Origin: Escherichia coli
GTDB taxonomy: Bacteria; Pseudomonadota; Gammaproteobacteria; Enterobacterales; Enterobacteriaceae
DNA: 64,000 nucleotides
Strand: one strand, 5' to 3'
NCBI RefSeq assembly: GCF_024223415.1
Contig: NZ_CP100500.1
A program made the translations under genes and the position numbers. Positions 1-26,983 of this stretch are shown one piece after another; position 1 is the first letter of the stretch; every line of letters starts with the position of its first letter. The notes beneath the pieces were generated by a model. That model had not been told where the DNA came from. It ran no database searches and was given only the letters and a program-made list of their open reading frames with translations.

Positions 1-1
1 G

Positions 2-379
<378 letters not shown>

Positions 380-406
380 TTTTACAAATCAGTAACAAAA
401 GTAAAG

Positions 407-446
407 AAGGCGACACCATGCGACTATGGGTCGCCTTTATTTTTTC
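407..446 (+). terminator. rho-independent terminator downstream of trxB
   Basis: 8-bp stem AAGGCGAC / GTCGCCTT (407-414 and 430-437) followed by TATTTTTT. Confidence 0.6.
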
Positions 447-501
447 CCCGTTGTAACATTGCTCTGCAAATAATTCTGATAACTCACCTGCTAAGCGTGC
501 A

Positions 502-2268
502 ATGAATAAATCTCGTCAAAAAGAGTTAACCCGCTGGTTAAAACAGCAAAGCGTCATCTCCCAACGTTGGCTGAATATTTCTCGTCTGCTGGGCTTTGTG
601 AGCGGCATATTGATCATTGCCCAGGCATGGTTCATGGCGCGAATTCTGCAACATATGATTATGGAGAATATTCCCCGTGAAGCCCTGCTGCTTCCCTTTA
701 CGTTACTGGTTCTGACCTTTGTACTGCGCGCATGGGTGGTCTGGTTACGCGAACGGGTGGGTTATCACGCCGGGCAGCATATCCGCTTTGCCATCCGCCG
801 TCAGGTTCTCGACCGTCTGCAACAAGCAGGGCCAGCGTGGATTCAGGGTAAACCTGCGGGGAGCTGGGCGACGCTGGTACTCGAGCAAATTGACGATATG
901 CATGATTACTATGCACGCTATCTGCCGCAAATGGCGCTGGCAGTGTCGGTGCCGTTGCTGATTGTGGTGGCGATCTTCCCCTCTAACTGGGCTGCGGCGC
1001 TCATTCTGCTGGGCACAGCACCGCTAATTCCGTTGTTTATGGCGCTGGTTGGAATGGGGGGTGCCGATGCTAACCGACGTAACTTTCTCGCTCTTGCTCG
1101 CTTAAGTGGGCATTTCCTCGATCGCCTGCGCGGCATGGAAACATTGCGTATTTTTGGTCGTGGTGAAGCTGAAATTGAAAGTATTCGTTCTGCTTCGGAA
1201 GATTTCCGCCAACGGACAATGGAAGTGCTACGGCTGGCGTTTTTATCCTCCGGCATTCTCGAATTTTTTACCTCGCTGTCAATTGCTCTGGTGGCGGTCT
1301 ACTTTGGTTTTTCCTATCTCGGCGAGCTGGATTTTGGTCACTACGATACTGGCGTGACGCTGGCTGCGGGTTTTCTGGCCCTGATCCTTGCGCCAGAGTT
1401 TTTCCAGCCATTACGCGATCTCGGTACGTTTTATCATGCTAAAGCCCAGGCTGTTGGCGCAGCTGACAGTCTGAAAACGTTTATGGAAACCCCGCTCGCC
1501 CATCCGCAGCGCGGTGAGGCGGAATTAGCATCGACCGATCCGGTGACCATTGAGGCCGAGGATCTGTTTATCACGTCGCCGGAAGGTAAAACGCTGGCCG
1601 GACCGCTGAACTTTACTTTGCCAGCAGGCCAACGTGCAGTGTTGGTTGGTCGCAGCGGTTCAGGTAAAAGCTCACTGCTGAACGTGCTTTCTGGTTTTCT
1701 CTCATATCAGGGATCATTACGAATCAACGGGATAGAATTACGTGATTTATCACCAGAATCATGGCGTAAACATCTCTCCTGGGTTGGGCAAAACCCACAA
1801 TTACCGGCAGCAACATTGCGGGATAACGTACTACTGGCGCGACCTGATGCCAGCGAACAAGAATTACAAGCAGCGCTGGATAACGCCTGGGTCAGCGAGT
1901 TTCTACCGCTCCTGCCACAAGGCGTTGATACACCTGTTGGCGACCAGGCTGCCCGCCTTTCCGTGGGGCAGGCGCAGCGCGTGGCGGTGGCCCGTGCGTT
2001 ACTAAATCCCTGTTCGCTATTACTGTTGGATGAACCCGCTGCCAGCCTTGATGCTCACAGTGAACAGCGCGTAATGGAGGCGCTGAATGCCGCCTCTCTG
2101 CGTCAGACAACGTTAATGGTCACCCACCAGTTAGAAGATCTTGCTGACTGGGATGTCATTTGGGTTATGCAGGATGGCCGGATTATTGAGCAAGGACGTT
2201 ACGCGGAATTAAGTGTGGCTGGTGGCCCATTCGCCACATTACTTGCCCATCGTCAGGAGGAGATTTAA
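502..2268 (+). CDS. cydD: ABC transporter ATP-binding/permease CydD (cysteine/glutathione export for cytochrome bd assembly)
   Basis: 588-aa ORF with N-terminal transmembrane domain and C-terminal ABC ATPase (Walker A GRSGSGKSS, signature LSVGQAQR, Walker B LLLLDEP); conserved position before cydC. Confidence 0.93.
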   Translation: MNKSRQKELTRWLKQQSVISQRWLNISRLLGFVSGILIIAQAWFMARILQHMIMENIPREALLLPFTLLVLTFVLRAWVVWLRERVGYHAGQHIRFAIRRQVLDRLQQAGPAWIQGKPAGSWATLVLEQIDDMHDYYARYLPQMALAVSVPLLIVVAIFPSNWAAALILLGTAPLIPLFMALVGMGGADANRRNFLALARLSGHFLDRLRGMETLRIFGRGEAEIESIRSASEDFRQRTMEVLRLAFLSSGILEFFTSLSIALVAVYFGFSYLGELDFGHYDTGVTLAAGFLALILAPEFFQPLRDLGTFYHAKAQAVGAADSLKTFMETPLAHPQRGEAELASTDPVTIEAEDLFITSPEGKTLAGPLNFTLPAGQRAVLVGRSGSGKSSLLNVLSGFLSYQGSLRINGIELRDLSPESWRKHLSWVGQNPQLPAATLRDNVLLARPDASEQELQAALDNAWVSEFLPLLPQGVDTPVGDQAARLSVGQAQRVAVARALLNPCSLLLLDEPAASLDAHSEQRVMEALNAASLRQTTLMVTHQLEDLADWDVIWVMQDGRIIEQGRYAELSVAGGPFATLLAHRQEEI

Positions 2269-3990
2269 ATGCGCGCTTTGCTACCCTATCTGGCACTGTA
2301 TAAACGTCATAAATGGATGTTAAGTCTTGGTATTGTGCTGGCAATTGTGACGCTGCTCGCCAGTATCGGTCTGTTGACACTTTCCGGCTGGTTCCTCTCG
2401 GCCTCAGCGGTTGCGGGGGTTGCCGGACTGTACAGCTTCAACTATATGCTACCCGCTGCGGGCGTGCGTGGTGCAGCAATCACCCGTACTGCCGGGCGTT
2501 ATTTTGAACGTCTGGTAAGTCACGACGCGACTTTCCGCGTGTTGCAGCATCTGCGCATTTACACCTTCAGCAAATTGTTGCCCCTCTCCCCTGCCGGACT
2601 GGCGCGCTATCGTCAGGGCGAATTGCTCAACCGCGTGGTGGCGGATGTTGATACGCTCGATCATCTTTACCTGCGCGTTATCTCGCCGCTGGTGGGCGCT
2701 TTTGTGGTGATTATGGTGGTGACAATCGGGTTAAGTTTCCTTGATTTCACCCTCGCCTTTACGCTGGGCGGCATTATGTTACTGACGCTTTTCCTGATGC
2801 CACCGCTGTTTTATCGTGCGGGAAAAAGCACCGGGCAAAATCTGACTCATCTTCGCGGACAGTATCGCCAACAACTGACGGCCTGGCTGCAAGGGCAAGC
2901 TGAGCTGACCATTTTTGGTGCCAGCGATCGTTATCGCACGCAACTAGAGAATACAGAAATTCAATGGCTGGAAGCGCAACGCCGTCAATCTGAACTGACC
3001 GCATTGTCGCAAGCGATAATGCTGCTCATTGGCGCGTTAGCGGTGATCCTGATGCTGTGGATGGCGTCTGGCGGCGTTGGCGGCAATGCTCAACCCGGCG
3101 CGTTAATTGCCCTGTTTGTCTTCTGCGCGTTAGCCGCGTTTGAAGCACTGGCACCAGTAACGGGTGCATTTCAGCATCTGGGGCAAGTCATTGCCTCTGC
3201 CGTTCGGATCACTGATTTAACGGATCAAAAACCGGAGGTCACCTTCCCTGATACCCAAACTCGTGTTGCCGATCGCGTTTCGCTGACGTTACGGGATGTT
3301 CAGTTCACTTATCCGGAGCAATCTCAACAGGCACTTAAAGGGATTTCTCTTCAGGTAAACGCCGGGGAACATATAGCGATTCTCGGGCGAACCGGATGCG
3401 GCAAATCAACACTGTTACAACTGCTGACCCGCGCATGGGACCCGCAACAGGGCGAGATTTTGCTTAACGATAGCCCCATATCCAGCCTGAATGAAGCGGC
3501 TCTACGACAGACCATCAGCGTTGTTCCTCAGCGAGTGCATCTGTTTAGCGCCACGCTGCGTGATAATCTGTTACTCGCCTCGCCTGGCAGTAGTGATGAG
3601 GCTCTGTCGGAGATCTTGCGTCGCGTTGGTCTGGAGAAGCTGCTCGAGGATGCAGGTCTCAACAGTTGGTTAGGTGAAGGCGGACGCCAGCTCTCCGGTG
3701 GTGAACTGCGCCGTCTGGCTATCGCCCGTGCGCTGTTACATGATGCGCCACTGGTGTTGCTGGATGAACCTACCGAAGGCTTAGATGCCACAACCGAAAG
3801 CCAGATCCTTGAATTGCTTGCAGAAATGATGCGTGAGAAAACGGTGTTAATGGTCACCCATCGACTTCGCGGACTCTCTCGTTTCCAACAAATAATAGTG
3901 ATGGACAACGGGCAAATTATTGAGCAAGGTACTCACGCAGAACTGCTTGCCAGACAGGGGCGTTATTACCAGTTCAAGCAGGGTTTGTAA
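2269..3990 (+). CDS. cydC: ABC transporter ATP-binding/permease CydC
   Basis: 573-aa ORF, start abuts cydD stop (TAAATG); Walker A GRTGCGKST, signature LSGGELRR, Walker B LVLLDEP. Confidence 0.93.
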   Translation: MRALLPYLALYKRHKWMLSLGIVLAIVTLLASIGLLTLSGWFLSASAVAGVAGLYSFNYMLPAAGVRGAAITRTAGRYFERLVSHDATFRVLQHLRIYTFSKLLPLSPAGLARYRQGELLNRVVADVDTLDHLYLRVISPLVGAFVVIMVVTIGLSFLDFTLAFTLGGIMLLTLFLMPPLFYRAGKSTGQNLTHLRGQYRQQLTAWLQGQAELTIFGASDRYRTQLENTEIQWLEAQRRQSELTALSQAIMLLIGALAVILMLWMASGGVGGNAQPGALIALFVFCALAAFEALAPVTGAFQHLGQVIASAVRITDLTDQKPEVTFPDTQTRVADRVSLTLRDVQFTYPEQSQQALKGISLQVNAGEHIAILGRTGCGKSTLLQLLTRAWDPQQGEILLNDSPISSLNEAALRQTISVVPQRVHLFSATLRDNLLLASPGSSDEALSEILRRVGLEKLLEDAGLNSWLGEGGRQLSGGELRRLAIARALLHDAPLVLLDEPTEGLDATTESQILELLAEMMREKTVLMVTHRLRGLSRFQQIIVMDNGQIIEQGTHAELLARQGRYYQFKQGL

Positions 3991-4031
3991 GCTATTATTG
4001 AACGATCCGACTTGCGTGGAGTTTTGCGGTC

Positions 4032-4736
4032 ATGCGCCTGGTTCAGCTTTCTCGCCATTCAATAGCCTTCCCTTCCCCGGAAGGCGCATTACGTGAGCCT
4101 AACGGCCTGCTGGCACTTGGGGGCGATCTTAGCCCTGCGCGCCTGTTAATGGCTTACCAGCGTGGTATTTTTCCGTGGTTTTCTCCAGGCGACCCCATCC
4201 TCTGGTGGTCGCCAGATCCCCGCGCGGTGCTATGGCCAGAATCACTGCATATCAGCCGTAGTATGAAGCGATTTCATAAACGCTCGCCCTATCGTGTCAC
4301 GATGAATTACGCTTTTGGTCAGGTCATTGAAGGCTGTGCCAGCGATCGCGAAGAAGGAACCTGGATCACGCGTGGCGTGGTCGAAGCCTACCATCGCCTT
4401 CACGAACTCGGTCATGCCCACTCCATTGAAGTCTGGCGTGAAGATGAGCTTGTCGGCGGTATGTACGGCGTGGCCCAGGGAACGCTATTTTGTGGCGAGT
4501 CCATGTTCAGCCGGATGGAAAATGCGTCTAAAACGGCGCTTCTGGTATTCTGTGAGGAATTTATCGGTCATGGCGGTAAGCTTATCGACTGCCAGGTCCT
4601 TAACGATCACACAGCATCGCTTGGTGCCTGCGAAATTCCCCGCCGGGATTACCTTAATTATCTCAATCAAATGCGCCTCGGACGATTGCCGAATAATTTC
4701 TGGGTACCACGATGCTTGTTTTCACCACAAGAATGA
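4032..4736 (+). CDS. aat: leucyl/phenylalanyl-tRNA--protein transferase
   Basis: 234-aa ORF in the conserved cydC-aat-infA context; sequence recognisable as Aat. Confidence 0.9.
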
Positions 4737-5017
4737 ATGTTTTCGGCACATTTCTCCCCAGAGTGTTATAATTGCGGTCGCAGAGTTGGTTACGCTCATT
4801 ACCCCGCTGCCGATAAGGAATTTTTCGCGTCAGGTAACGCCCATCGTTTATCTCACCGCTCCCTTATACGTTGCGCTTTTGGTGCGGCTTAGCCGTGTGT
4901 TTTCGGAGTAATGTGCCGAACCTGTTTGTTGCGATTTAGCGCGCAAATCTTTACTTATTTACAGAACTTCGGCATTATCTTGCCGGTTCAAATTACGGTA
5001 GTGATACCCCAGAGGAT

Positions 5018-5239
<222 letters not shown>

Positions 5240-5281
5240 TTGTTTTACCGCCTGATGGGCGAAGAGAAAGAACGAGTAAAA

Positions 5282-5303
5282 GGTCGGTTTAACCGGCCTT
5301 TTT
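5282..5303 (+). terminator. rho-independent terminator downstream of infA
   Basis: GGTCGG / CCGGCC stem with TTTAA loop followed by TTTTT. Confidence 0.6.
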
Positions 5304-5492
5304 ATTTTGTGATATGTAGGAAGTACTTTGGAAGTATAAGTCCATAACTTGTCTCGATGTAGATATACTGCACAACTTGTTTACAGTATGAGCAAACAAT
5401 AATTATCATTAAAATTCTTCTTGACCGTTTTACTCCAACTCCCTATAGTAGCGCCCCGTTGCCCCCCATGAGGTCAGGCAACAAAACAATTT

Positions 5493-5580
5493 GGTGAGGT
5501 GTCCGAGTGGCTGAAGGAGCACGCCTGGAAAGTGTGTATACGGCAACGTATCGGGGGTTCGAATCCCCCCCTCACCGCCA
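5493..5580 (+). tRNA. serW: tRNA-Ser (anticodon GGA), long variable arm
   Basis: GGTGAGG...CCTCACC acceptor stem, anticodon loop CCTGGAAAG, GGTTCGAATCC T-arm, encoded CCA end; 88 nt; lies after infA as in the conserved core order. Confidence 0.95.
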
Positions 5581-5588
5581 GATATTGA

Positions 5589-5620
5589 GCGCATGTTATT
5601 GTTTAACATGCGCTTTTTTT
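5589..5620 (+). terminator. rho-independent terminator downstream of tRNA-Ser
   Basis: Perfect 10-bp stem GCGCATGTTA / TAACATGCGC with TTGTT loop followed by seven T. Confidence 0.8.
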
Positions 5621-5731
5621 ATTTTTCCTTCCAGGCAGTATGCCACAGGGTATGCCATCTGAAACCGGTTTGTATGAGCCTCGATCACATCTTATCAGAC
5701 AATTTCCGATCTTTGAGCATACAGGGCAAAG

Positions 5732-6574
5732 CTATACTGCCAGCATGTCAGGATAGTGTCTGACGATAATATCATTCAGTCTGTCAACCAGTTCCGGTTT
5801 CCTGAACGTGATATGCGCGGAGCCTTTCCTGAAGTATCTGATGCTGAACATCTCATCCTCATAGCATGCTTCACCCTGAACGGACCGGATGTGCTCATCC
5901 AGACGAATGAGGATATTGTCCCGGTCAGTGGGTATGGGTTTACCGCTGAACAGATACAGTATCCTTTCCAGGTCGGCAAGCCGCCCGGCCTGCGGACCAT
6001 GGTTCAGACCAAATACCCACCAGTCCCATTTCACCAGGTTGTTGAGGATAATCTTACTGCCGAATTTACAGGGTGACCCGCTGTTGTGCGTCCGGCTCAG
6101 TCCTCTGAAGAGGTTGATGACGCCCCGTTCAGCCATTTCATCCCTGTTACGGTGCAGTTGTTCAGACGTACTCAGGATATTCGCTTCGCTGATTTCCGGA
6201 AAATTATCCTCCTCCAGTGAACGGTACCATTCATCACGCGCCTGTGCATCCATCAGACTCAGCATCCCGGAGCGTTGCATCAGGTCACGCCAGATTTCAC
6301 GGTCAAGGTTCCGGGTGATGGCTTTCATTGCGGTTTCCGGTTTTTCCATCAGCCAGCAGCCACAGCGAAAATCCTGTTTCACGGCCCAGTCCCGGGCCGT
6401 TTTACCTCCGATGCTTTCTGTCATTACTGAGATTTCTGCCAGTTGCCGGATAAGCCTTTCGGTTTGTTGCAGTGCTTCATTCCGTACCGTCACAACGTGC
6501 CGGATACTGGTTGAGCAGATAACGTCCGTATGTCCGTTAAGCGTTTCCGGACGGGAGACTGTGATATCAGACAT
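5732..6574 (-). CDS. hypothetical protein, island-borne (possibly a DUF4942-type protein that often follows cbtA/yeeW modules)
   Basis: 280-aa ORF, first gene after the serW terminator, same strand as the downstream end of the toxin-antitoxin module; family assignment is from memory only. Confidence 0.55.
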   Translation of the reverse strand: MSDITVSRPETLNGHTDVICSTSIRHVVTVRNEALQQTERLIRQLAEISVMTESIGGKTARDWAVKQDFRCGCWLMEKPETAMKAITRNLDREIWRDLMQRSGMLSLMDAQARDEWYRSLEEDNFPEISEANILSTSEQLHRNRDEMAERGVINLFRGLSRTHNSGSPCKFGSKIILNNLVKWDWWVFGLNHGPQAGRLADLERILYLFSGKPIPTDRDNILIRLDEHIRSVQGEACYEDEMFSIRYFRKGSAHITFRKPELVDRLNDIIVRHYPDMLAV

Positions 6575-6887
6575 AACCGATATTCCTTTTTGCAGATAAA
6601 TGAAAACGCCAGCCGTATTCGGACTGGCGTCAGTGGAATGAATCGTGGTGAGTGAGATGATGAGTGAGACTCACAGGTTCTGGTGCTGAAGCTGCAGCTG
6701 GCGCAGGGTGCGGATATCCTCCCTGGCCTGTTCGATACAGGGCAACAGTGCTGCCGAATCCGTTTTATCCTCATCGTTGTCGAAGATAATGCAGGAGCCG
6801 CAGTCGATATTGTCCTGCAGCCACGCAATCAGAATATCCGGTGCTGTTTCTGTGGTTAATGATTTCATACGGTGTCTTTTGTCCCGG

Positions 6888-7376
6888 TTACCAGTCGAAA
6901 GTGGGAAAACCCGGCAGACATTCAGCGCCGGCATCCAGATGAATGAGACTGACGCCATAACGCCGGATGAGAGTGACAACCAGACGACGAAACGTTTTTG
7001 ACAGACCCAGGCGTTTAAGCCGCAGAGCCGGGTACGACCACGCATCAGTACGTAACAGATATCCGCTGCCTGTAAAATGAATCCATTCTGATTCGCCGTT
7101 GTCATTCGTCTGATGCGACAGCGAGTACAGCCAGGCATTGTCCTGCTCCGTGATATGTGCGGTACTGCAGCGTATGCCGGTAAGGGCCGCAAATGGTGGC
7201 ATGCAGTCTGCTGAGGTCCGGTCAGATTCATCAGCAACACGAAGGGAACAGCCATTATCGCAGACCACGTTAATCAGTTCAGCGAGATTAACACCATCGA
7301 CGTCAGCGACAATGCGCCCCATGTTCAGTGCCTGTACGTTAACGCTGTCGGCTTCCAGTGTCAGGGACAGTTTCAT
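6888..7376 (-). CDS. YeeW-like protein (DUF5983-type) downstream of cbtA
   Basis: 162-aa ORF whose start overlaps the cbtA stop by 4 nt (ATGA coupling); position matches yeeW in CP4-44-type modules. Confidence 0.6.
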
Positions 7377-20403: not shown

Positions 20404-21453
20404 ATGAAACTTTTCAGTTCAAAACAGCGGACAAAAATTTATTTCAAACGGACTGTAATACCAGCAACTTTTCTTTTCGCATCATTTCCCGCTTTTTCAC
20501 AGGATATTGTCACCCTTTATACAACCAGAGAGCCCGGCCTGATTAAGCCACTTCTGGACAGCTGGACAAAAAGCAGCGGTATAAATGTTAATACGGTTTA
20601 TATCAAGGACGGTATGCTGGAGCGGATTAAAGCTGAAGGAAAAAATTCTCCAGCCGATCTACTGATGACCGTCGATGCCGGAAATCTCATTGATTTAGTC
20701 GAAGCGGGAGTCACTCAGCCTGTTGAATCTGAAATACTGAAAACGGCCATTCCGGCAAATCTTCGTGGAGAAAATAACCACTGGTTTGCTTTATCCATGC
20801 GGGCCCGGGTACTGTATGCAGAAAAAAACTTCCCCATTGACAGCCTGCATTATGAACAACTCGCCAGCCCTGAATACAAAGGCAGGGTCTGCATGCGTTC
20901 AGGGCAGCACCCTTATAATACAGCATTGATTGCTGCCATGATCGCCCACCACGGAGAAGAAAAAGCAGAGGAGTGGTTACACGGTCTTAAAACCAACCTG
21001 TCACGAAAAGCAACGGGGGGCGATCGCGACATAGCCCGCGATATTTTAGGAGGGATATGTGACATCGGACTTGCGAATTCTTATTACGTCGGTCATATGA
21101 AAAATGCCAAAGAAGGGACAGATGCACGCAAATGGGGAGATGCAATTAAAGTAATCAAACCAGCCTTCGTGCAGGGAGGGACCCATGTCAACATAACCGG
21201 CGCAGCCGTTGCTCGTTATGCACCGAACAAAGAAAATGCAATAAAACTGATGGAGTATCTCATATCTGTTCCGGCGCAGCAGCAATATGCCAAAGCTAAC
21301 TTTGAGTACCCGGTACTCAAAGGCGTTGATCTTGACCCTGTCATCAGAACCACTATTGGTGAAATAGATGTCGATAAAATTCCGTTAACTGACATCGTAA
21401 AGAACCGCAAACAGGCAAGCTTACTGGTAGATAAAGTTGGGTTCGATCAATAA
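20404..21453 (+). CDS. afuA: ferric iron ABC transporter periplasmic binding protein (AfuA/FbpA family)
   Basis: 349-aa ORF with signal peptide, first gene of a binding protein-permease-ATPase operon. Confidence 0.8.
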   Translation: MKLFSSKQRTKIYFKRTVIPATFLFASFPAFSQDIVTLYTTREPGLIKPLLDSWTKSSGINVNTVYIKDGMLERIKAEGKNSPADLLMTVDAGNLIDLVEAGVTQPVESEILKTAIPANLRGENNHWFALSMRARVLYAEKNFPIDSLHYEQLASPEYKGRVCMRSGQHPYNTALIAAMIAHHGEEKAEEWLHGLKTNLSRKATGGDRDIARDILGGICDIGLANSYYVGHMKNAKEGTDARKWGDAIKVIKPAFVQGGTHVNITGAAVARYAPNKENAIKLMEYLISVPAQQQYAKANFEYPVLKGVDLDPVIRTTIGEIDVDKIPLTDIVKNRKQASLLVDKVGFDQ

Positions 21454-23125
21454 ATCATTTTGGGCTTTAGTGTGGCGTTATCTTTTTTCTGCATTACGTT
21501 CCACGCTAAAGCCTTTACATCTGTGCTCGCTGTGTATCGCACTGGGTGTTCTTACACCTGTCATAACGTTATTCTGGCTGGCAACAGATGCAGACAGTTC
21601 GCAATGGAGCGGTTTTTTAACGTTTGTGCTACCTTCCGCTCTGCAGAATACCGTTATTCTGTTAACGGGTGTTGCTGTAATGACATGCGTTCTTGGTGTG
21701 GGGTGCGCCTGGGCAGTGACTGTCTGGGATTTTCCCGGCCGAAAAATGCTCAGCTGGGCATTAGTGTTACCTCTGGCCATGCCTGCCTATATTGTTGCTT
21801 TTGCATGGCTCGATCTCCTGCATCCCCTGGGGCCTCTGCAAAATTTTATCCGTCTTTTATCGGGATTTGACAGTCCCCGTCAGTTTCGTCTGCCGGATTT
21901 GCGCTCCCTTCCCGGAGCGATAATATTACTCGGTCTTGTACTGTATCCTTATGTCTACCTGACCTGCCGACCGGTGTTTATCAATCAGTCCGCTCACTTA
22001 CTGGAGGCAGCACGAACATTAGGTTGTGGCCCTGTCTCTGCTTTTTTCCGGGTAACGCTACCTCTGGCACGCCCAGCAATAGTGACAGGTATGAGTCTGG
22101 CCCTTCTGGAAACCCTGAACGACATTGGTGCATCTGAATTTCTCGGTATCCGGACAATCACAGTAACAGTCTACACCACATGGATATCACGCTCTGATCT
22201 TGCCGGTGCTGCACAAATTGCCGGCATAGTTCTGACATTTGTCTTCATGATTCTGGGTCTTGAATTTTTGTTCCGGAGAAAACAGGTATTCAGTAGTCGC
22301 AGTATGCGGGGAATACAACAAATCAGGATTTATGGCTGGCGTGGATGGTTGCTGTGCAGCATTACAGCACTGCCCGTTATTCTGGGATTTTGCGCACCTG
22401 TATTATTCCTGGGATGGGAAAGTGCAAAGCGTCTCGGAGAAGGGATTACGATATCTTCATCATTGCTGTCAGCACTGAAAAATACATTGTTTCTCGCATC
22501 CGGTACGACCCTGATTGTATCAGGGGTCAGTTTACTGGTGGTCTGGAGCGCACGGCACAGTGTACTGAACAGCCGTTTCATCGAATTCCGACGAACGGTC
22601 ATGCACCTGGCATCTTCAGGATATGCTGTTCCCGGTACTATTCTTGCTATCGGCTTTCTGCCGCCTGCAATGCTGGTTGATCACTGGCTCGCTGGTCTTC
22701 TTAATATCAGCGGCCTTCCCCTCATGTCTGCAGGTATACTGTTAGTTATTTGCTGTGCGATTCGTTTCCTGGCCATTTCAACCGGAGCGCTTGATTCAGC
22801 CCTTGGTCGCATACCGCCGTCACTGGAACAGGCATCACGATTACTGGGAGAAAATGGCGCAGGGACTTTTGTCAGAGTTCATTTGCCATTACTTCGCCCT
22901 GCTCTGATCAGCAGTGCGCTGCTGGTTTTCTCCGACGTGATGAAAGAACTGCCGACCACCTTACTGCTACGACCTGTTAACTTTGAGACCCTGTCCACAC
23001 TCCTGTATGCGGAAGCGGCACGTGGAACCTACGAACAGGGCGCAATTGCTGCACTGTTAATCGTACTTGCCGGCATACTCCCTGTGATTTTATTAGTACG
23101 CAGGCAAATGAACAGTCACCACTAA
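21437..23125 (+). CDS. afuB: ferric iron ABC transporter permease (AfuB/FbpB family)
   Basis: 562-aa polytopic membrane protein with duplicated permease halves; overlaps afuA stop. Confidence 0.8.
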   Translation: MGSINKSFWALVWRYLFSALRSTLKPLHLCSLCIALGVLTPVITLFWLATDADSSQWSGFLTFVLPSALQNTVILLTGVAVMTCVLGVGCAWAVTVWDFPGRKMLSWALVLPLAMPAYIVAFAWLDLLHPLGPLQNFIRLLSGFDSPRQFRLPDLRSLPGAIILLGLVLYPYVYLTCRPVFINQSAHLLEAARTLGCGPVSAFFRVTLPLARPAIVTGMSLALLETLNDIGASEFLGIRTITVTVYTTWISRSDLAGAAQIAGIVLTFVFMILGLEFLFRRKQVFSSRSMRGIQQIRIYGWRGWLLCSITALPVILGFCAPVLFLGWESAKRLGEGITISSSLLSALKNTLFLASGTTLIVSGVSLLVVWSARHSVLNSRFIEFRRTVMHLASSGYAVPGTILAIGFLPPAMLVDHWLAGLLNISGLPLMSAGILLVICCAIRFLAISTGALDSALGRIPPSLEQASRLLGENGAGTFVRVHLPLLRPALISSALLVFSDVMKELPTTLLLRPVNFETLSTLLYAEAARGTYEQGAIAALLIVLAGILPVILLVRRQMNSHH

Positions 23126-23140
23126 AGGAACCCAACCACC

Positions 23141-23818
23141 ATGTCAGAAATTGCCCTGAGTCTTAATGATGTTCATGTTGTTTATACCAGAAGCAGACAG
23201 GTCGTGTTACAGGGTTTTTCAATGTCCGTTCATAAAGGTGAACTTGTATGTCTGCTTGGCGTTTCAGGTTGTGGAAAAACAACCGTATTACGAACTGTAG
23301 CAGGCCTGGAACGATTACAACAAGGTGAAATATTCATATCACAACGCTGTGTAGCCGGAGCCGGAATTCATCTCCCCCCGGAAAAGCGCAGGGTCGGAAT
23401 GGTCTTTCAGGAATATGCTCTGTTTCCCCACCTGACAGTAACACAAAATGTAGCCTTTGGTCTGCGCCATCTGCCTTATGAACTACAGCATGCCAGAGTC
23501 ACTGAACTTCTGAAAATGGTTGAATTATTATCCTGTGCAAAGCGCTATCCTCATGAACTCTCAGGTGGACAGCAACAACGTATTGCACTTGCCAGAGCAC
23601 TGGCCCCGGCCCCTGATATTTTGTTACTGGATGAGCCATTTTCCAGTCTGGATAAACAAACCAGTGAATACCTAGTGAAAGAAGTACGGGACCTGTTACG
23701 TAGTTCAGGTCAGACAGCCCTGATCGTTACTCATAATGAATCAGAAGCACTCGAAATATCAAACCGTATTTGTATCATGACGGAGGGTAATATAAGTTCG
23801 GTTCAGTCTGTGGTCTGA
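23141..23818 (+). CDS. afuC: ferric iron ABC transporter ATP-binding protein, short form (ATPase core only)
   Basis: Walker A GVSGCGKTT, signature LSGGQQQRIALARAL, Walker B ILLLDEP, H-loop VTHNESEA; 225 aa, no C-terminal extension. Confidence 0.8.
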   Translation: MSEIALSLNDVHVVYTRSRQVVLQGFSMSVHKGELVCLLGVSGCGKTTVLRTVAGLERLQQGEIFISQRCVAGAGIHLPPEKRRVGMVFQEYALFPHLTVTQNVAFGLRHLPYELQHARVTELLKMVELLSCAKRYPHELSGGQQQRIALARALAPAPDILLLDEPFSSLDKQTSEYLVKEVRDLLRSSGQTALIVTHNESEALEISNRICIMTEGNISSVQSVV

Positions 23819-24625
23819 GACGTAACCGCACATTCAGGATCCCCTGTTCGTCATGGAAGCTGTATTATGTAACTATATGGAGGCATAGCAGATATTGTTG
23901 AAGAAATACATCAAAAACACTCACATTTCTGGTACAACAGGAGTTGTAGATTTAATGATTATTGGGACGAAGTTACTACAGAAAAGCTGTACCGGGAACA
24001 GGTATGGTAGTTCCTTGTCACGTGTGGATTAAATGAGCATAATGCAGATCAATTACAAAAGGCATTTCGTAATAGCTCTGTTGTTGATTCGGTTACCATG
24101 ATGGCTGTGGCAAGAGCCACCATGTGACTATACATGATATAATTATTTGTGTGATGTTGTTATACCTGAACAACAGGCATGAGATAATGGAAAAAATTAT
24201 ACATATAACTCGGCTTTCCCATACTCCACTACAGAACAGTATATGATTCTGAACATTTCAATCTAGGCGCATTACATAACTATATTACATGTAACTATCT
24301 GGCCCTCAAATCATCGAGAGAATTGTTTAAAGTCAGCAGTCATAATCTGAATATAGATCATTATCACATAATTTAATTCTTAATTCACTACATTTTCCCT
24401 TGAATCCGGTATAATAAGACAGAGCACATGGCTGATGCTTTGTTTCGGTGTGGATAATCTGGTGGCGTCGGCTATGTGCTCTCAACAGTTAACTTATTAT
24501 GAATACTATTATCAATACAGGTTTTACATAAAAAATAAAAAGCATCTCCTGATATCAGCCCAGTCTCTTTGGGCTAACCAGAATTATACATAAGCTATGC
24601 AGATATTAATTTGCATACAAAACCA

Positions 24626-25108
24626 TTATTTTCTTGAGCACACTATACTAATGTATCCCAGAAGAGGTCCTGTGCATAATCCTGTTGCTGCCCATAATAC
24701 AGCAAGTGAAATATCAGGACCATCTGTATCCGGATAAAATCCTCCATAATAAACAGCAAATACAGTAGAGTATGCATTGAATGCAGGTAAACTACTGTTC
24801 ATGCACGGTATCTGAAGGAGTAAAAGAAGAACATACACTGTTATTATTACTGATATAATGATTGCCAACATGGCAGAAATGTGCAGGGATATCATGTAAT
24901 TTATAGCAGCAATACATAACACAGACGTTGCTATACCGGGAAGTAATGAAGCATAAATTTTCTTTAATATGTCAGGCGTCGCTCCCAGAGCATAGTACCA
25001 TGCCCAGCCAATAAATATAGCCCACACAGGAATATTAATCCCCGGCCATGAAGCCAGGCATGACAGCCCTGCTAACAGGGCTATGGTAAGATTCATCGGT
25101 AATTTCAT
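24626..25108 (-). CDS. hypothetical integral membrane protein (last gene of the carboxylase operon)
   Basis: 160-aa ORF, four or five hydrophobic helices, 15 nt downstream of the PxpC-like gene. Confidence 0.6.
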   Translation of the reverse strand: MKLPMNLTIALLAGLSCLASWPGINIPVWAIFIGWAWYYALGATPDILKKIYASLLPGIATSVLCIAAINYMISLHISAMLAIIISVIITVYVLLLLLQIPCMNSSLPAFNAYSTVFAVYYGGFYPDTDGPDISLAVLWAATGLCTGPLLGYISIVCSRK

Positions 25109-25122
25109 TTCAGACGCACCTG

Positions 25123-26109
25123 TTATGAGCCATAAGATAATGAATTAATGAGAAGGTTGAGTCTTTCATTAAATTCTTTACGGATTTCCAGAGCTTTATC
25201 CATACTGACTTGTGAAAATGTCACACTGGAGCCGGGTGCAAGTTGAGCCAGAATATCGAGATCAGTACTCACTACTGTCCCCACTGTCATATATCCCCCT
25301 CCTGATACAGCATCCCTGTGCAAAACTATTGGTGTGCTTCCAGAGGGAACCTGAATTGATCCCACGGGATAACAGGCATCAACGATATTTGATGGATCTG
25401 AACCAGCACCAAATGGCGGGTGCCGATCAACAAAATTAAGTGAGCGCCCTCCCTGAAACCTGAAACCTGTTCTGTCTGAATCCTTACTGATCTTCCATAC
25501 ATCATCAAAAAAACTTTCAACTGATTCCTGTTTCAGGCGATGGATATACATTCCGGGTACAACACGTAATTCATTTTCTTTAGTAAAAACTGGACGTAAC
25601 TCATCTGGCAGAGTGTAATTTATACGCCCTTTATTACATATTGCTTCCTGTACGGGTAATTCATCTCCGGCCTGTAACCGACGTCCTTTATAACCACCAA
25701 GACTGCCAAGGAGGTAAGTAGAACGACTTCCGGCAATAACAGGGACATTAATACCTCCCGCGATGGCAAGGTAACAGCGTACACCCACCGTGGTGTATGC
25801 GATTTTTAATATCTGTCCTTTCCGGGCTAACAGGGATGTATTCACCGGAACACTCTGATTATCCAGGGTCACCGTAAAAGGGGCACCGCTGACTGCAAAA
25901 AGAGTATCCTGCTCAAACAAGAGTTCGGGCCCCAGTAATGTGCATTCCAGCGCTGCATCAAACGGGTGATTACCGACAAGCAAATTGGCGGTAACTAACC
26001 CTGTACGATCTAATGCACCGGATGGCGGGATCCCGAGATGATAAAAGCCTTCTCGTCCTCCGTCCTGAACGGACGTGGATAATCCGGGCGTCAATACTTT
26101 AATTCCCAT
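25123..26109 (-). CDS. biotin-dependent carboxyltransferase family protein (allophanate hydrolase subunit 2 / PxpC-like)
   Basis: Start placed at MGIKVLTPGLSTSVQDGGREG; overlaps upstream gene by 11 nt. Confidence 0.8.
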   Translation of the reverse strand: MGIKVLTPGLSTSVQDGGREGFYHLGIPPSGALDRTGLVTANLLVGNHPFDAALECTLLGPELLFEQDTLFAVSGAPFTVTLDNQSVPVNTSLLARKGQILKIAYTTVGVRCYLAIAGGINVPVIAGSRSTYLLGSLGGYKGRRLQAGDELPVQEAICNKGRINYTLPDELRPVFTKENELRVVPGMYIHRLKQESVESFFDDVWKISKDSDRTGFRFQGGRSLNFVDRHPPFGAGSDPSNIVDACYPVGSIQVPSGSTPIVLHRDAVSGGGYMTVGTVVSTDLDILAQLAPGSSVTFSQVSMDKALEIRKEFNERLNLLINSLSYGS

Positions 26110-26983
26110 ACAGTTCTCCCAGTAAATTTTTAGTATAATCTTCAGGATTTTCTTCAAATGCGTTCAAATCAAAATTTACAGGCCTGATAAGTAATTCAAA
26201 ATTACCAGATTCCACATCACTTATACATTGATTATATTGTTCAGTATTGATCGCCCTGAACTTAATGATGTCCCCTGCCCGGAAAAACACCATAGAGTCT
26301 TTGAAATATGATAATTTCTGTTCTGTGTCATAAATCGGAGCTGGTGTTATACCGAACAATTGATACCCACCTGCCCCCCGGACTGGATATATAGCCCCGA
26401 AGCACCCGCCATGACCAACAGAATGTTTTGGTGTATCAGTTCTGGGAACAAGATATTTTGGAACCTGGATTTGCTTTTTCCGGTCAACCATCTGATACAT
26501 AAAAGGCAGCCCGGCAACGAAGCCAACCATAGAAACAAACCAGGGACTTGAATGATGGGCCTCAATAAACGTCTGAACATCCGGATATCCGTTTATTTCA
26601 GCAGCATACTCAAGATCGGTTAATGCCGGGTTTTGATGATTATTCCGGAACCGCATCAGGGTTTCATGAGTCCATGGATCATTATACAATACAGGAATTT
26701 CAATTATACGTGTCTGTAGTGTCATTTCTCCATTCCCGGAGAGCACATTAACATTTCGTATCTGTTGTAACAAATCATCAGGGTGTATAATGTCGGGATT
26801 AAATCTTATCTGACATGATGCATTTGCAAGGCAAATATCGAGCACACCATTAATATTTAATGATTCTATTTTTCTCGTAAGAGACAAGCTGTGAAAAAAT
26901 GCTTTAAGAGACATTTCCTCACTGACTTCGATGAAAAGATGCTCATCAGCACCAAATGTATAGCGCAAATTTATATCAGTCAT
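26099..26983 (-). CDS. allophanate hydrolase subunit 1 / PxpB-like (KipI family)
   Basis: 294-aa ORF in the conserved position between the biotin carboxylase and the PxpC-like gene. Confidence 0.75.
   Translation of the reverse strand: MTDINLRYTFGADEHLFIEVSEEMSLKAFFHSLSLTRKIESLNINGVLDICLANASCQIRFNPDIIHPDDLLQQIRNVNVLSGNGEMTLQTRIIEIPVLYNDPWTHETLMRFRNNHQNPALTDLEYAAEINGYPDVQTFIEAHHSSPWFVSMVGFVAGLPFMYQMVDRKKQIQVPKYLVPRTDTPKHSVGHGGCFGAIYPVRGAGGYQLFGITPAPIYDTEQKLSYFKDSMVFFRAGDIIKFRAINTEQYNQCISDVESGNFELLIRPVNFDLNAFEENPEDYTKNLLGELYGN

Follow-up and report, generated by a model that had tools for sequence, protein, structure and literature searches.

What fills an 807-nt gap between two convergent genes of an Escherichia coli genomic island, and why is this gap so rich in A and T? 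The gap (positions 23819-24625, hereafter the tract) lies in a 64-kb stretch of E. coli DNA, which was analysed as a whole and is called the window here. It runs from the base directly 3' of the TGA of a 225-aa ABC-transporter ATPase ORF to the base adjoining the stop codon of a 160-aa DUF1097 ORF on the opposite strand. The initial annotation had described an AT-rich, gene-free tract of about 800 bp, and this description is exact in its coordinates and composition: the GC content is 36.3% against 50.4% in the whole window, the lowest-GC 1-kb bin of the 64 kb coincides with the tract, and the longest ORFs within it encode 52, 50, 45, and 40 aa, so that none reaches 60 codons. Stop codons are frequent in DNA of 36% GC, and the absence of long ORFs is therefore within chance expectation and says nothing alone.

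The tract belongs to the chromosome and is rarely found. Of 5,426 complete E. coli genomes searched by blastn, 11 carry the same tract (99.8% identity), each on its chromosome, and the RefSeq/PGAP annotation places no feature at the tract in any of these 11. Carriers of the island include E. coli AR_0085, MS 119-7, and LR-31. Searches of plasmid (72,556) and phage (50,697 records) collections, in both near and distant modes, did not find it. The window and the corresponding tract of E. coli AR_0085 differ only at 24264 and in the A-run at 24530, and a metagenome contig with the same island differs from the window by two mismatches and one gap over 3,473 nt (99.9%). The lesions described below are common to all known copies (the 11 genomes and the one metagenome contig).

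A sensitive blastn search of the tract against the 5,426 genomes (28 Gb) returned, besides the 11 identical copies, matches in six further genomes. In five of the six, query positions 141-377 (23959-24195 of the window) matched an annotated GNAT N-acetyltransferase gene at 75% identity (E = 4e-37); in the sixth, strain CS5L, the match was limited to query 141-257 and fell on the unannotated 5' part of a gene split by an IS3 element. Pairwise blastn against the intact GNAT gene gave 190 identical positions of 253 (75%, E = 3e-44), and tblastn with the intact GNAT protein as query recovered two segments of the tract (46% and 49% identity, E = 6e-13) that lie in two different frames, with stops within the alignment. 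The left part of the tract is therefore almost certainly a heavily decayed, unannotated pseudogene of a small GNAT acetyltransferase gene, situated at a module junction. The initial annotation had suspected a gene remnant and had proposed a translated search and a comparison for an intact gene; the remnant has been found, with multiple stops, frameshifts, and deletions, and both approaches gave a positive answer, the second in the form of an intact 144-aa homologue (WP_053287820.1) in other E. coli strains. Its remark that short stretches translate to protein-like peptides interrupted by stops applies to 23956 to about 24285, where the frame-0 and frame-1 translations align to GNAT, but not to the rest of the tract, which has no protein match. 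As judged from the alignments, the remnant proper makes up about 40% of the tract (~330 nt) and its homologous flanks a further ~170 nt, with ~310 nt on the right free of a coding remnant; the initial reading thus holds for the left 60%.

The start codon of the pseudogene is kept, the part corresponding to the 5' 260 nt of the reference gene is well preserved, and the 3' part is full of deletions. Within the first 87 codons alone, the gapped alignment to the intact gene shows at least four frameshifting indels and three premature stops (Table 1), and about 90 nt of the reference are missing after 24194. In GNAT proteins, the acetyl-CoA-binding loop of motif A follows the pattern Q/R-x-x-G-x-G/A. 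This loop reads QQGLGYG in the intact protein and QQA*DNG in the window copy, where the third premature stop falls within it.

Table 1. Features of the tract and its flanks, in window coordinates
Feature	Position	Strand	Evidence or detail
ABC-transporter ATP-binding gene, 225 aa, left flank	23141-23818	+	ORF list; PGAP annotation of identical E. coli locus
Ancestral non-coding spacer, ATPase stop to GNAT start	23819-23955	+	homology to upstream DNA in L002
GNAT N-acetyltransferase pseudogene (144-aa ancestor)	23956-24285	+	blastn, tblastn, gapped alignment
Two in-frame 3-nt deletions	after 23958 and after 24157	+	gapped nucleotide alignment to intact GNAT
1-nt deletion	23967	+	gapped nucleotide alignment to intact GNAT
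Premature stop, reference codon 20	TAG 24008	+	alignment to intact GNAT
Net -1 indel	24074-24078	+	gapped nucleotide alignment to intact GNAT
11-nt deletion	24098	+	gapped nucleotide alignment to intact GNAT
1-nt insertion	24123	+	gapped nucleotide alignment to intact GNAT
Premature stop, reference codon 66	TGA 24135	+	alignment to intact GNAT
Premature stop, reference codon 82	TGA 24180	+	alignment to intact GNAT
3' flank of former GNAT gene	24286-24316	+	alignment continues over L002:8428-8464, beyond reference stop
Orphan AT-rich DNA, seam between modules	24317-24529	.	no coding remnant; ~210 nt assignable to neither module
Long imperfect inverted repeat (hairpin)	24410-24500	+	repeat search, folding
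Predicted intrinsic terminator of DUF1097/pxp operon	24530-24589	-	stem 24589-24542, run UUUUUAUUUUUU at 24541-24530
DUF1097 membrane-protein gene, 160 aa, right flank	24626-25108	-	Pfam PF06496, 69.9 bits; PGAP

Beyond the large deletion, the tail of the remnant (24210-24316) aligns with L002:8343-8464, L002 being the locus of E. coli CFSAN061770 that carries the intact gene, with a score of 45.25 against 20.9 +/- 3.3 in 500 shuffles, none of which reached 45.25. This alignment extends 36 nt beyond the reference stop codon, and the end of the former gene can therefore be placed near 24285, although the 3' third of the alignment is ambiguous, with two gapped solutions, and leaves this right end uncertain by tens of bases. 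The tract also contains a short repeated motif: TTAYRTAACTAT has two exact copies (23865-23876 and 24272-24283) and a third that is lengthened by 2 inserted nt (TTACATGTAACTAT, 24286-24299). There is no exact copy of TTAYRTAACTAT elsewhere in the 64-kb window, three matches were found at one mismatch or fewer against 0.65 expected, and the homologous spacer of L002 does not preserve the first copy. These repeats are probably small duplications in decaying DNA.

The family assignment of the remnant rests on its intact homologue because the remnant itself reaches no Pfam GNAT model: its frameshift-corrected translation matched no Pfam family at E <= 1, and the raw translations (short ORFs and frame 0) gave only noise (E >= 0.097). 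A search for a closer intact relative with the frameshift-corrected translation yielded no candidate sharing enough words. All three marks of a pseudogene are nevertheless present, namely, collinear homology from the ATG to past the stop codon, disabling lesions, and a neighbourhood conserved with the intact copy. What a functional GNAT would show is absent from the remnant, which has no domain-model match, a destroyed motif A, and no uninterrupted frame of ~140-160 codons; it descends from a member of the family and is not a functional member. Its GC content (37.2%) is close to that of the intact gene (36.1%), and since the intact gene is itself so low in GC, the low value is inherited from the acetyltransferase gene rather than a result of decay. 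The AT-richness of the tract is thus a legacy of a dead foreign gene and not the mark of a regulatory region or a new element. The remnant is more decayed than the pseudogenes that PGAP normally flags, and this probably accounts for the missing annotation in the 11 RefSeq genomes.

The intact gene, WP_053287820.1 of E. coli CFSAN061770 (L002:7994-8428), encodes 144 aa and lies between sitABCD and the lsr operon, and the intact E. coli GNAT occupied this sit/lsr locus in every context seen. The protein scores above the cut-offs of four Pfam GNAT models, namely, PF00583 (46.2 bits, with a cut-off of 20.7), PF13508, PF13673, and PF13527, and matches no NCBIfam model. It has few relatives, with only three clusters among 5.8 billion proteins; a homologue from the Klebsiella oxytoca/huaxiensis group is 58% identical and lies in an unrelated gene context. 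The nearest solved structures are uncharacterised GNATs and a plant serotonin N-acetyltransferase (E from 1e-10 to 1e-7). A PhnO-type identity, considered because of the 2-aminoethylphosphonate matches of the neighbouring transporter, is not supported, given the lack of an NCBIfam match and the uncharacterised GNATs among the nearest structures. In strain CS5L (L003:6001-7768), the sit/lsr GNAT gene is split by an IS3-family insertion, and PGAP marks only the C-terminal part, as a pseudogene; the gene therefore appears dispensable in E. coli.

The two loci share more than the acetyltransferase. Between sitD and the intact GNAT gene, CFSAN061770 carries an unannotated 3'-end fragment of the same ABC ATPase gene (L002:7593-7811), within a ~1.2-kb stretch left blank by PGAP, the reverse of what the window shows. 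Here, L002:7601-7811 aligns with window positions 23702 to ~23914, which comprise the final ~120 nt of the ATPase gene and the adjoining ~95 nt of the tract, at 68% identity (146/214) with the stop codons co-positioned, and a tblastn search also detects ATPase residues 192-210 there. On the other side of the intact GNAT gene, the DNA has been replaced by an IS630 fragment. As the ATPase 3' end and the spacer precede both GNAT copies, both loci would derive from an ancestral segment in the order ABC ATPase, spacer, GNAT. This order is inferred from the sequences of two reciprocal relics rather than observed: no genome with both the ABC operon and the GNAT gene intact was found, and 23 orthologous operons (from Citrobacter, Buttiauxella, Cedecea, Raoultella, Serratia, and Symbiopectobacterium) have neither GNAT nor DUF1097 nearby and gave no match to the tract by blastn or tblastx. 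The reciprocal decay at the two loci is a hint that transporter and acetyltransferase formerly worked as a pair.

The initial annotation had also placed the tract at a junction between two cargo modules, and this is borne out on both sides, as the ABC operon on the left and the pxp/DUF1097 cluster on the right are each conserved as a unit elsewhere. The left module is a three-gene importer operon consisting of a substrate-binding protein (SBP) gene (20404-21453), a fused permease gene (21437-23125), and the ATPase gene, which comes last. For the transporter, the best family matches are to putative importers of 2-aminoethylphosphonate or of the polyamine type, with scores that all fall far short of the equivalog cut-offs, and those of the ATPase in NCBIfam are of the PhnT2/PotA type, likewise below these cut-offs. 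Orthologous operons in Citrobacter and Buttiauxella share 71-85% protein identity, the unit also occurs in Cedecea, and across the 23 orthologous operons the identity is 62-75% for the ATPase and 76-85% for the SBP. The spacer that follows the ATPase gene has no significant fold (z = +1.1), and the six-frame translation of 23812-23961 gave no protein match at E <= 0.001.

The right module ends in the DUF1097 gene, which is the last gene of a LysR/pxpA/BCCP/biotin carboxylase (BC)/pxpB/pxpC/DUF1097 cluster. The cluster is kept as a unit, with DUF1097 last, in two unrelated contigs (L093 and L094); the nearest relatives on the DUF1097 side share 57-59% protein identity, and their downstream DNA is not alignable. 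In L093 (positions 1-7042, GCA_000307305.1), from a distant genome, the cluster lies between clpA and infA, which is the chromosomal neighbourhood (infA-serW-clpA in E. coli K-12) that holds the island of the window. This may be a coincidence or may point to a recurrent insertion hotspot. Within the cluster of the window, the pxpC-like ORF (25123-26157, minus strand, TTG start, 344 aa) overlaps the upstream pxpB-like ORF (26099-26983, minus strand) by 59 nt, and at the identical E. coli locus PGAP uses a later pxpC-like start (equivalent to 25124-26110), which reduces the overlap to 11 nt. From its sequence and modelled fold, the segment at the right end of the tract is predicted to be the intrinsic terminator of this operon. 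It begins 36 nt 3' of the DUF1097 stop codon with a bulged stem of ~48 nt, directly followed by UUUUUAUUUUUU, and folds at -19.3 kcal/mol on the minus strand against -11.6 kcal/mol on the + strand, where the U-run is lacking. The z-score of this fold is just -2.3, and the terminator was not listed by a simple consensus scan because the stem is bulged.

Between the flank of the former GNAT gene and this terminator lies the orphan DNA that forms the seam. It has no significant similarity to the DNA 3' of the intact GNAT gene or 3' of distant DUF1097 genes, and searches of E. coli genomes, plasmids, phages, related loci, and metagenomes matched it only within the same island. A second gene remnant in the tract is unlikely and was rejected: phmmer searches with the six frames of 24240-24632 and 23812-23961, with stops written as X, returned no match at E <= 0.001 among 1.84 billion protein representatives.

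The most conspicuous feature of the seam is a palindrome of ~90 nt. Its core arms (24421-24438 and 24465-24482) are 18 nt long with three G.T positions, and outer arms, TAATAAG (24412-24418) and CTTATTA (24493-24499), extend the pairing to about 24410-24500. As + strand RNA, the core (24421-24482) folds at -32.6 kcal/mol (z = -5.0, with none of 200 shuffles as good), which places it within the top ~1% of the 76-nt segments of the 64-kb window (140/15,982). The minus strand folds at only -18.0 kcal/mol, because the three imperfect positions, G.U pairs in + strand RNA, are A.C in its complement. No U-tract follows the hairpin on the + strand, and a role in termination is therefore only a guess.

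Such a hairpin could make the core of the tract a structured non-coding or regulatory/stabilising RNA, with the pseudogene incidental to it. The strength of the fold and the strand bias of the G.U pairs agree with this reading, as does a perfect TATAAT at 24410-24415, which could let transcription begin at the base of the stem. However, three of three imperfect positions falling as G.U on one strand has a chance probability of ~1/4 (two-sided), Rfam 15 gave no match at E <= 1 on either strand of 22500-26000, and no + strand terminator lies 3' of the hairpin. As a promoter, the TATAAT was rejected, since it has no usable -35 element, the promoter scan was silent, and the hexamer lies within the extended inverted repeat. 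All known copies are identical and thus offer no covariation in favour of an RNA. We consider a structured RNA unlikely and prefer to read the tract as a dead gene followed by a termination zone.

Slightly less likely still is that the inverted repeat and the surrounding orphan DNA are a scar of module joining, such as a MITE, a recombination site, or what is left of a terminal repeat. The location, precisely within the ~210 nt assignable to neither module, fits well; IS fragments abound in the island, and at the other E. coli locus it was an IS630 fragment that replaced the DNA 3' of the intact GNAT gene. Against this, a search for further copies of the hairpin in the 5,426 E. coli genomes, 72,556 plasmids, 50,697 phage records, 1.5 Mb of related loci, and a metagenome collection found none, the one metagenome match being the same island; no transposase-like remnant is present in any frame and no flanking direct repeats are visible. 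Its identity as a dispersed repeat (REP, MITE, or IS end) was rejected on the same search. Taken by itself, the palindrome could form or stabilise the 3' end of the ABC-operon mRNA, be a scar of the junction, or have no role at all. That it is functional at all, whether as a structured + strand RNA complementary to the DUF1097 transcript at its 3' end, as a 3' stabiliser of the ABC-operon mRNA, or as a DNA site for module joining, we regard as improbable.

It is very unlikely that the tract encodes one or more small proteins. Two candidate ORFs are present, one of 52 aa (24435-24593, + strand) and one of 50 aa (24333-24485, minus strand), but ORFs of such lengths are expected by chance, neither has a homologue among 1.84 billion proteins or a Pfam match, no Shine-Dalgarno-like sequence precedes the ATG at 24435, and PGAP calls no such gene in the 11 genomes. 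Finally, a plain intergenic spacer that was never coding would suit the low GC, the lack of ORFs, and the right-hand 40% without protein similarity, but it is hardly credible given the collinear start-to-stop homology of 23956-24316 with an intact gene.

Taken together, we are highly confident that the tract consists of dead DNA where two horizontally acquired gene modules meet. In the history that best fits the alignments, the ABC importer operon would have arrived with a small, AT-rich GNAT gene ~140 nt 3' of its ATPase gene. This gene was not maintained in the island and gained frameshifts, stops, and deletions and lost its acetyl-CoA motif; these lesions, all visible in the alignments, mean that no GNAT product is possible. 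The remaining DNA would have no function beyond that of a long zone of 3' untranslated sequence and transcript termination separating the convergent operons. Transcripts of the DUF1097/pxp operon would end at the predicted minus-strand terminator, as its sequence and fold suggest, and those of the ABC operon would run into the pseudogene and might end or be stabilised at the + strand hairpin, the more tentative of the two proposals.

The tract lies within a larger cargo block. The positions 18134-41583 (and also 15282-18104) of the window form a ~26-kb block that is 99.6-99.9% identical to an island of E. coli AR_0085. It contains genes of an IS66-family element, a GTPase-family gene, the ABC operon, the pxp/DUF1097 cluster, a gabT-like gene, lldD/lldP, and an MFS transporter gene. 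In AR_0085 the block adjoins lptG/yjgR, and in the window it lies in an island 3' of cydDC-aat-infA and a tRNA-Ser(GGA) gene (5493-5580); the same cargo block therefore occupies two chromosomal sites. Within it, the tract is an ordinary relic of a genomic island together with termination signals, and not a new element. An 800-nt gap that is blank in RefSeq in 11 complete E. coli genomes is thereby explained, which has little import beyond annotation, and the reciprocal decay offers a small example of island cargo being pruned gene by gene.

The features of the tract can be compared with three known systems: (i) at its right end, the bulged stem followed by a U-run on the minus strand, 3' of the DUF1097 stop codon, resembles the rho-independent terminators found between convergent operons, whereas the + strand hairpin does not fit the definition of an intrinsic terminator for want of a U-tract. 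(ii) The WP_053287820.1 locus is homologous to the pseudogene from the start codon to beyond the stop, with 75-79% nucleotide identity and a GC content of 36-37%, and both GNAT copies lie 3' of the same kind of ABC ATPase gene end. The two loci differ in what was kept, as the sit/lsr locus has an intact GNAT gene and an ATPase gene cut to a ~120-nt fragment, and the window has the ATPase gene and a dead GNAT gene. (iii) The unitary pseudogenes and gene relics of enterobacterial islands are likewise horizontally acquired accessory genes that bear several independent lesions and lie unannotated between functional neighbours, and beside these the window copy has nothing unusual, apart from being more decayed than the pseudogenes normally flagged by PGAP.
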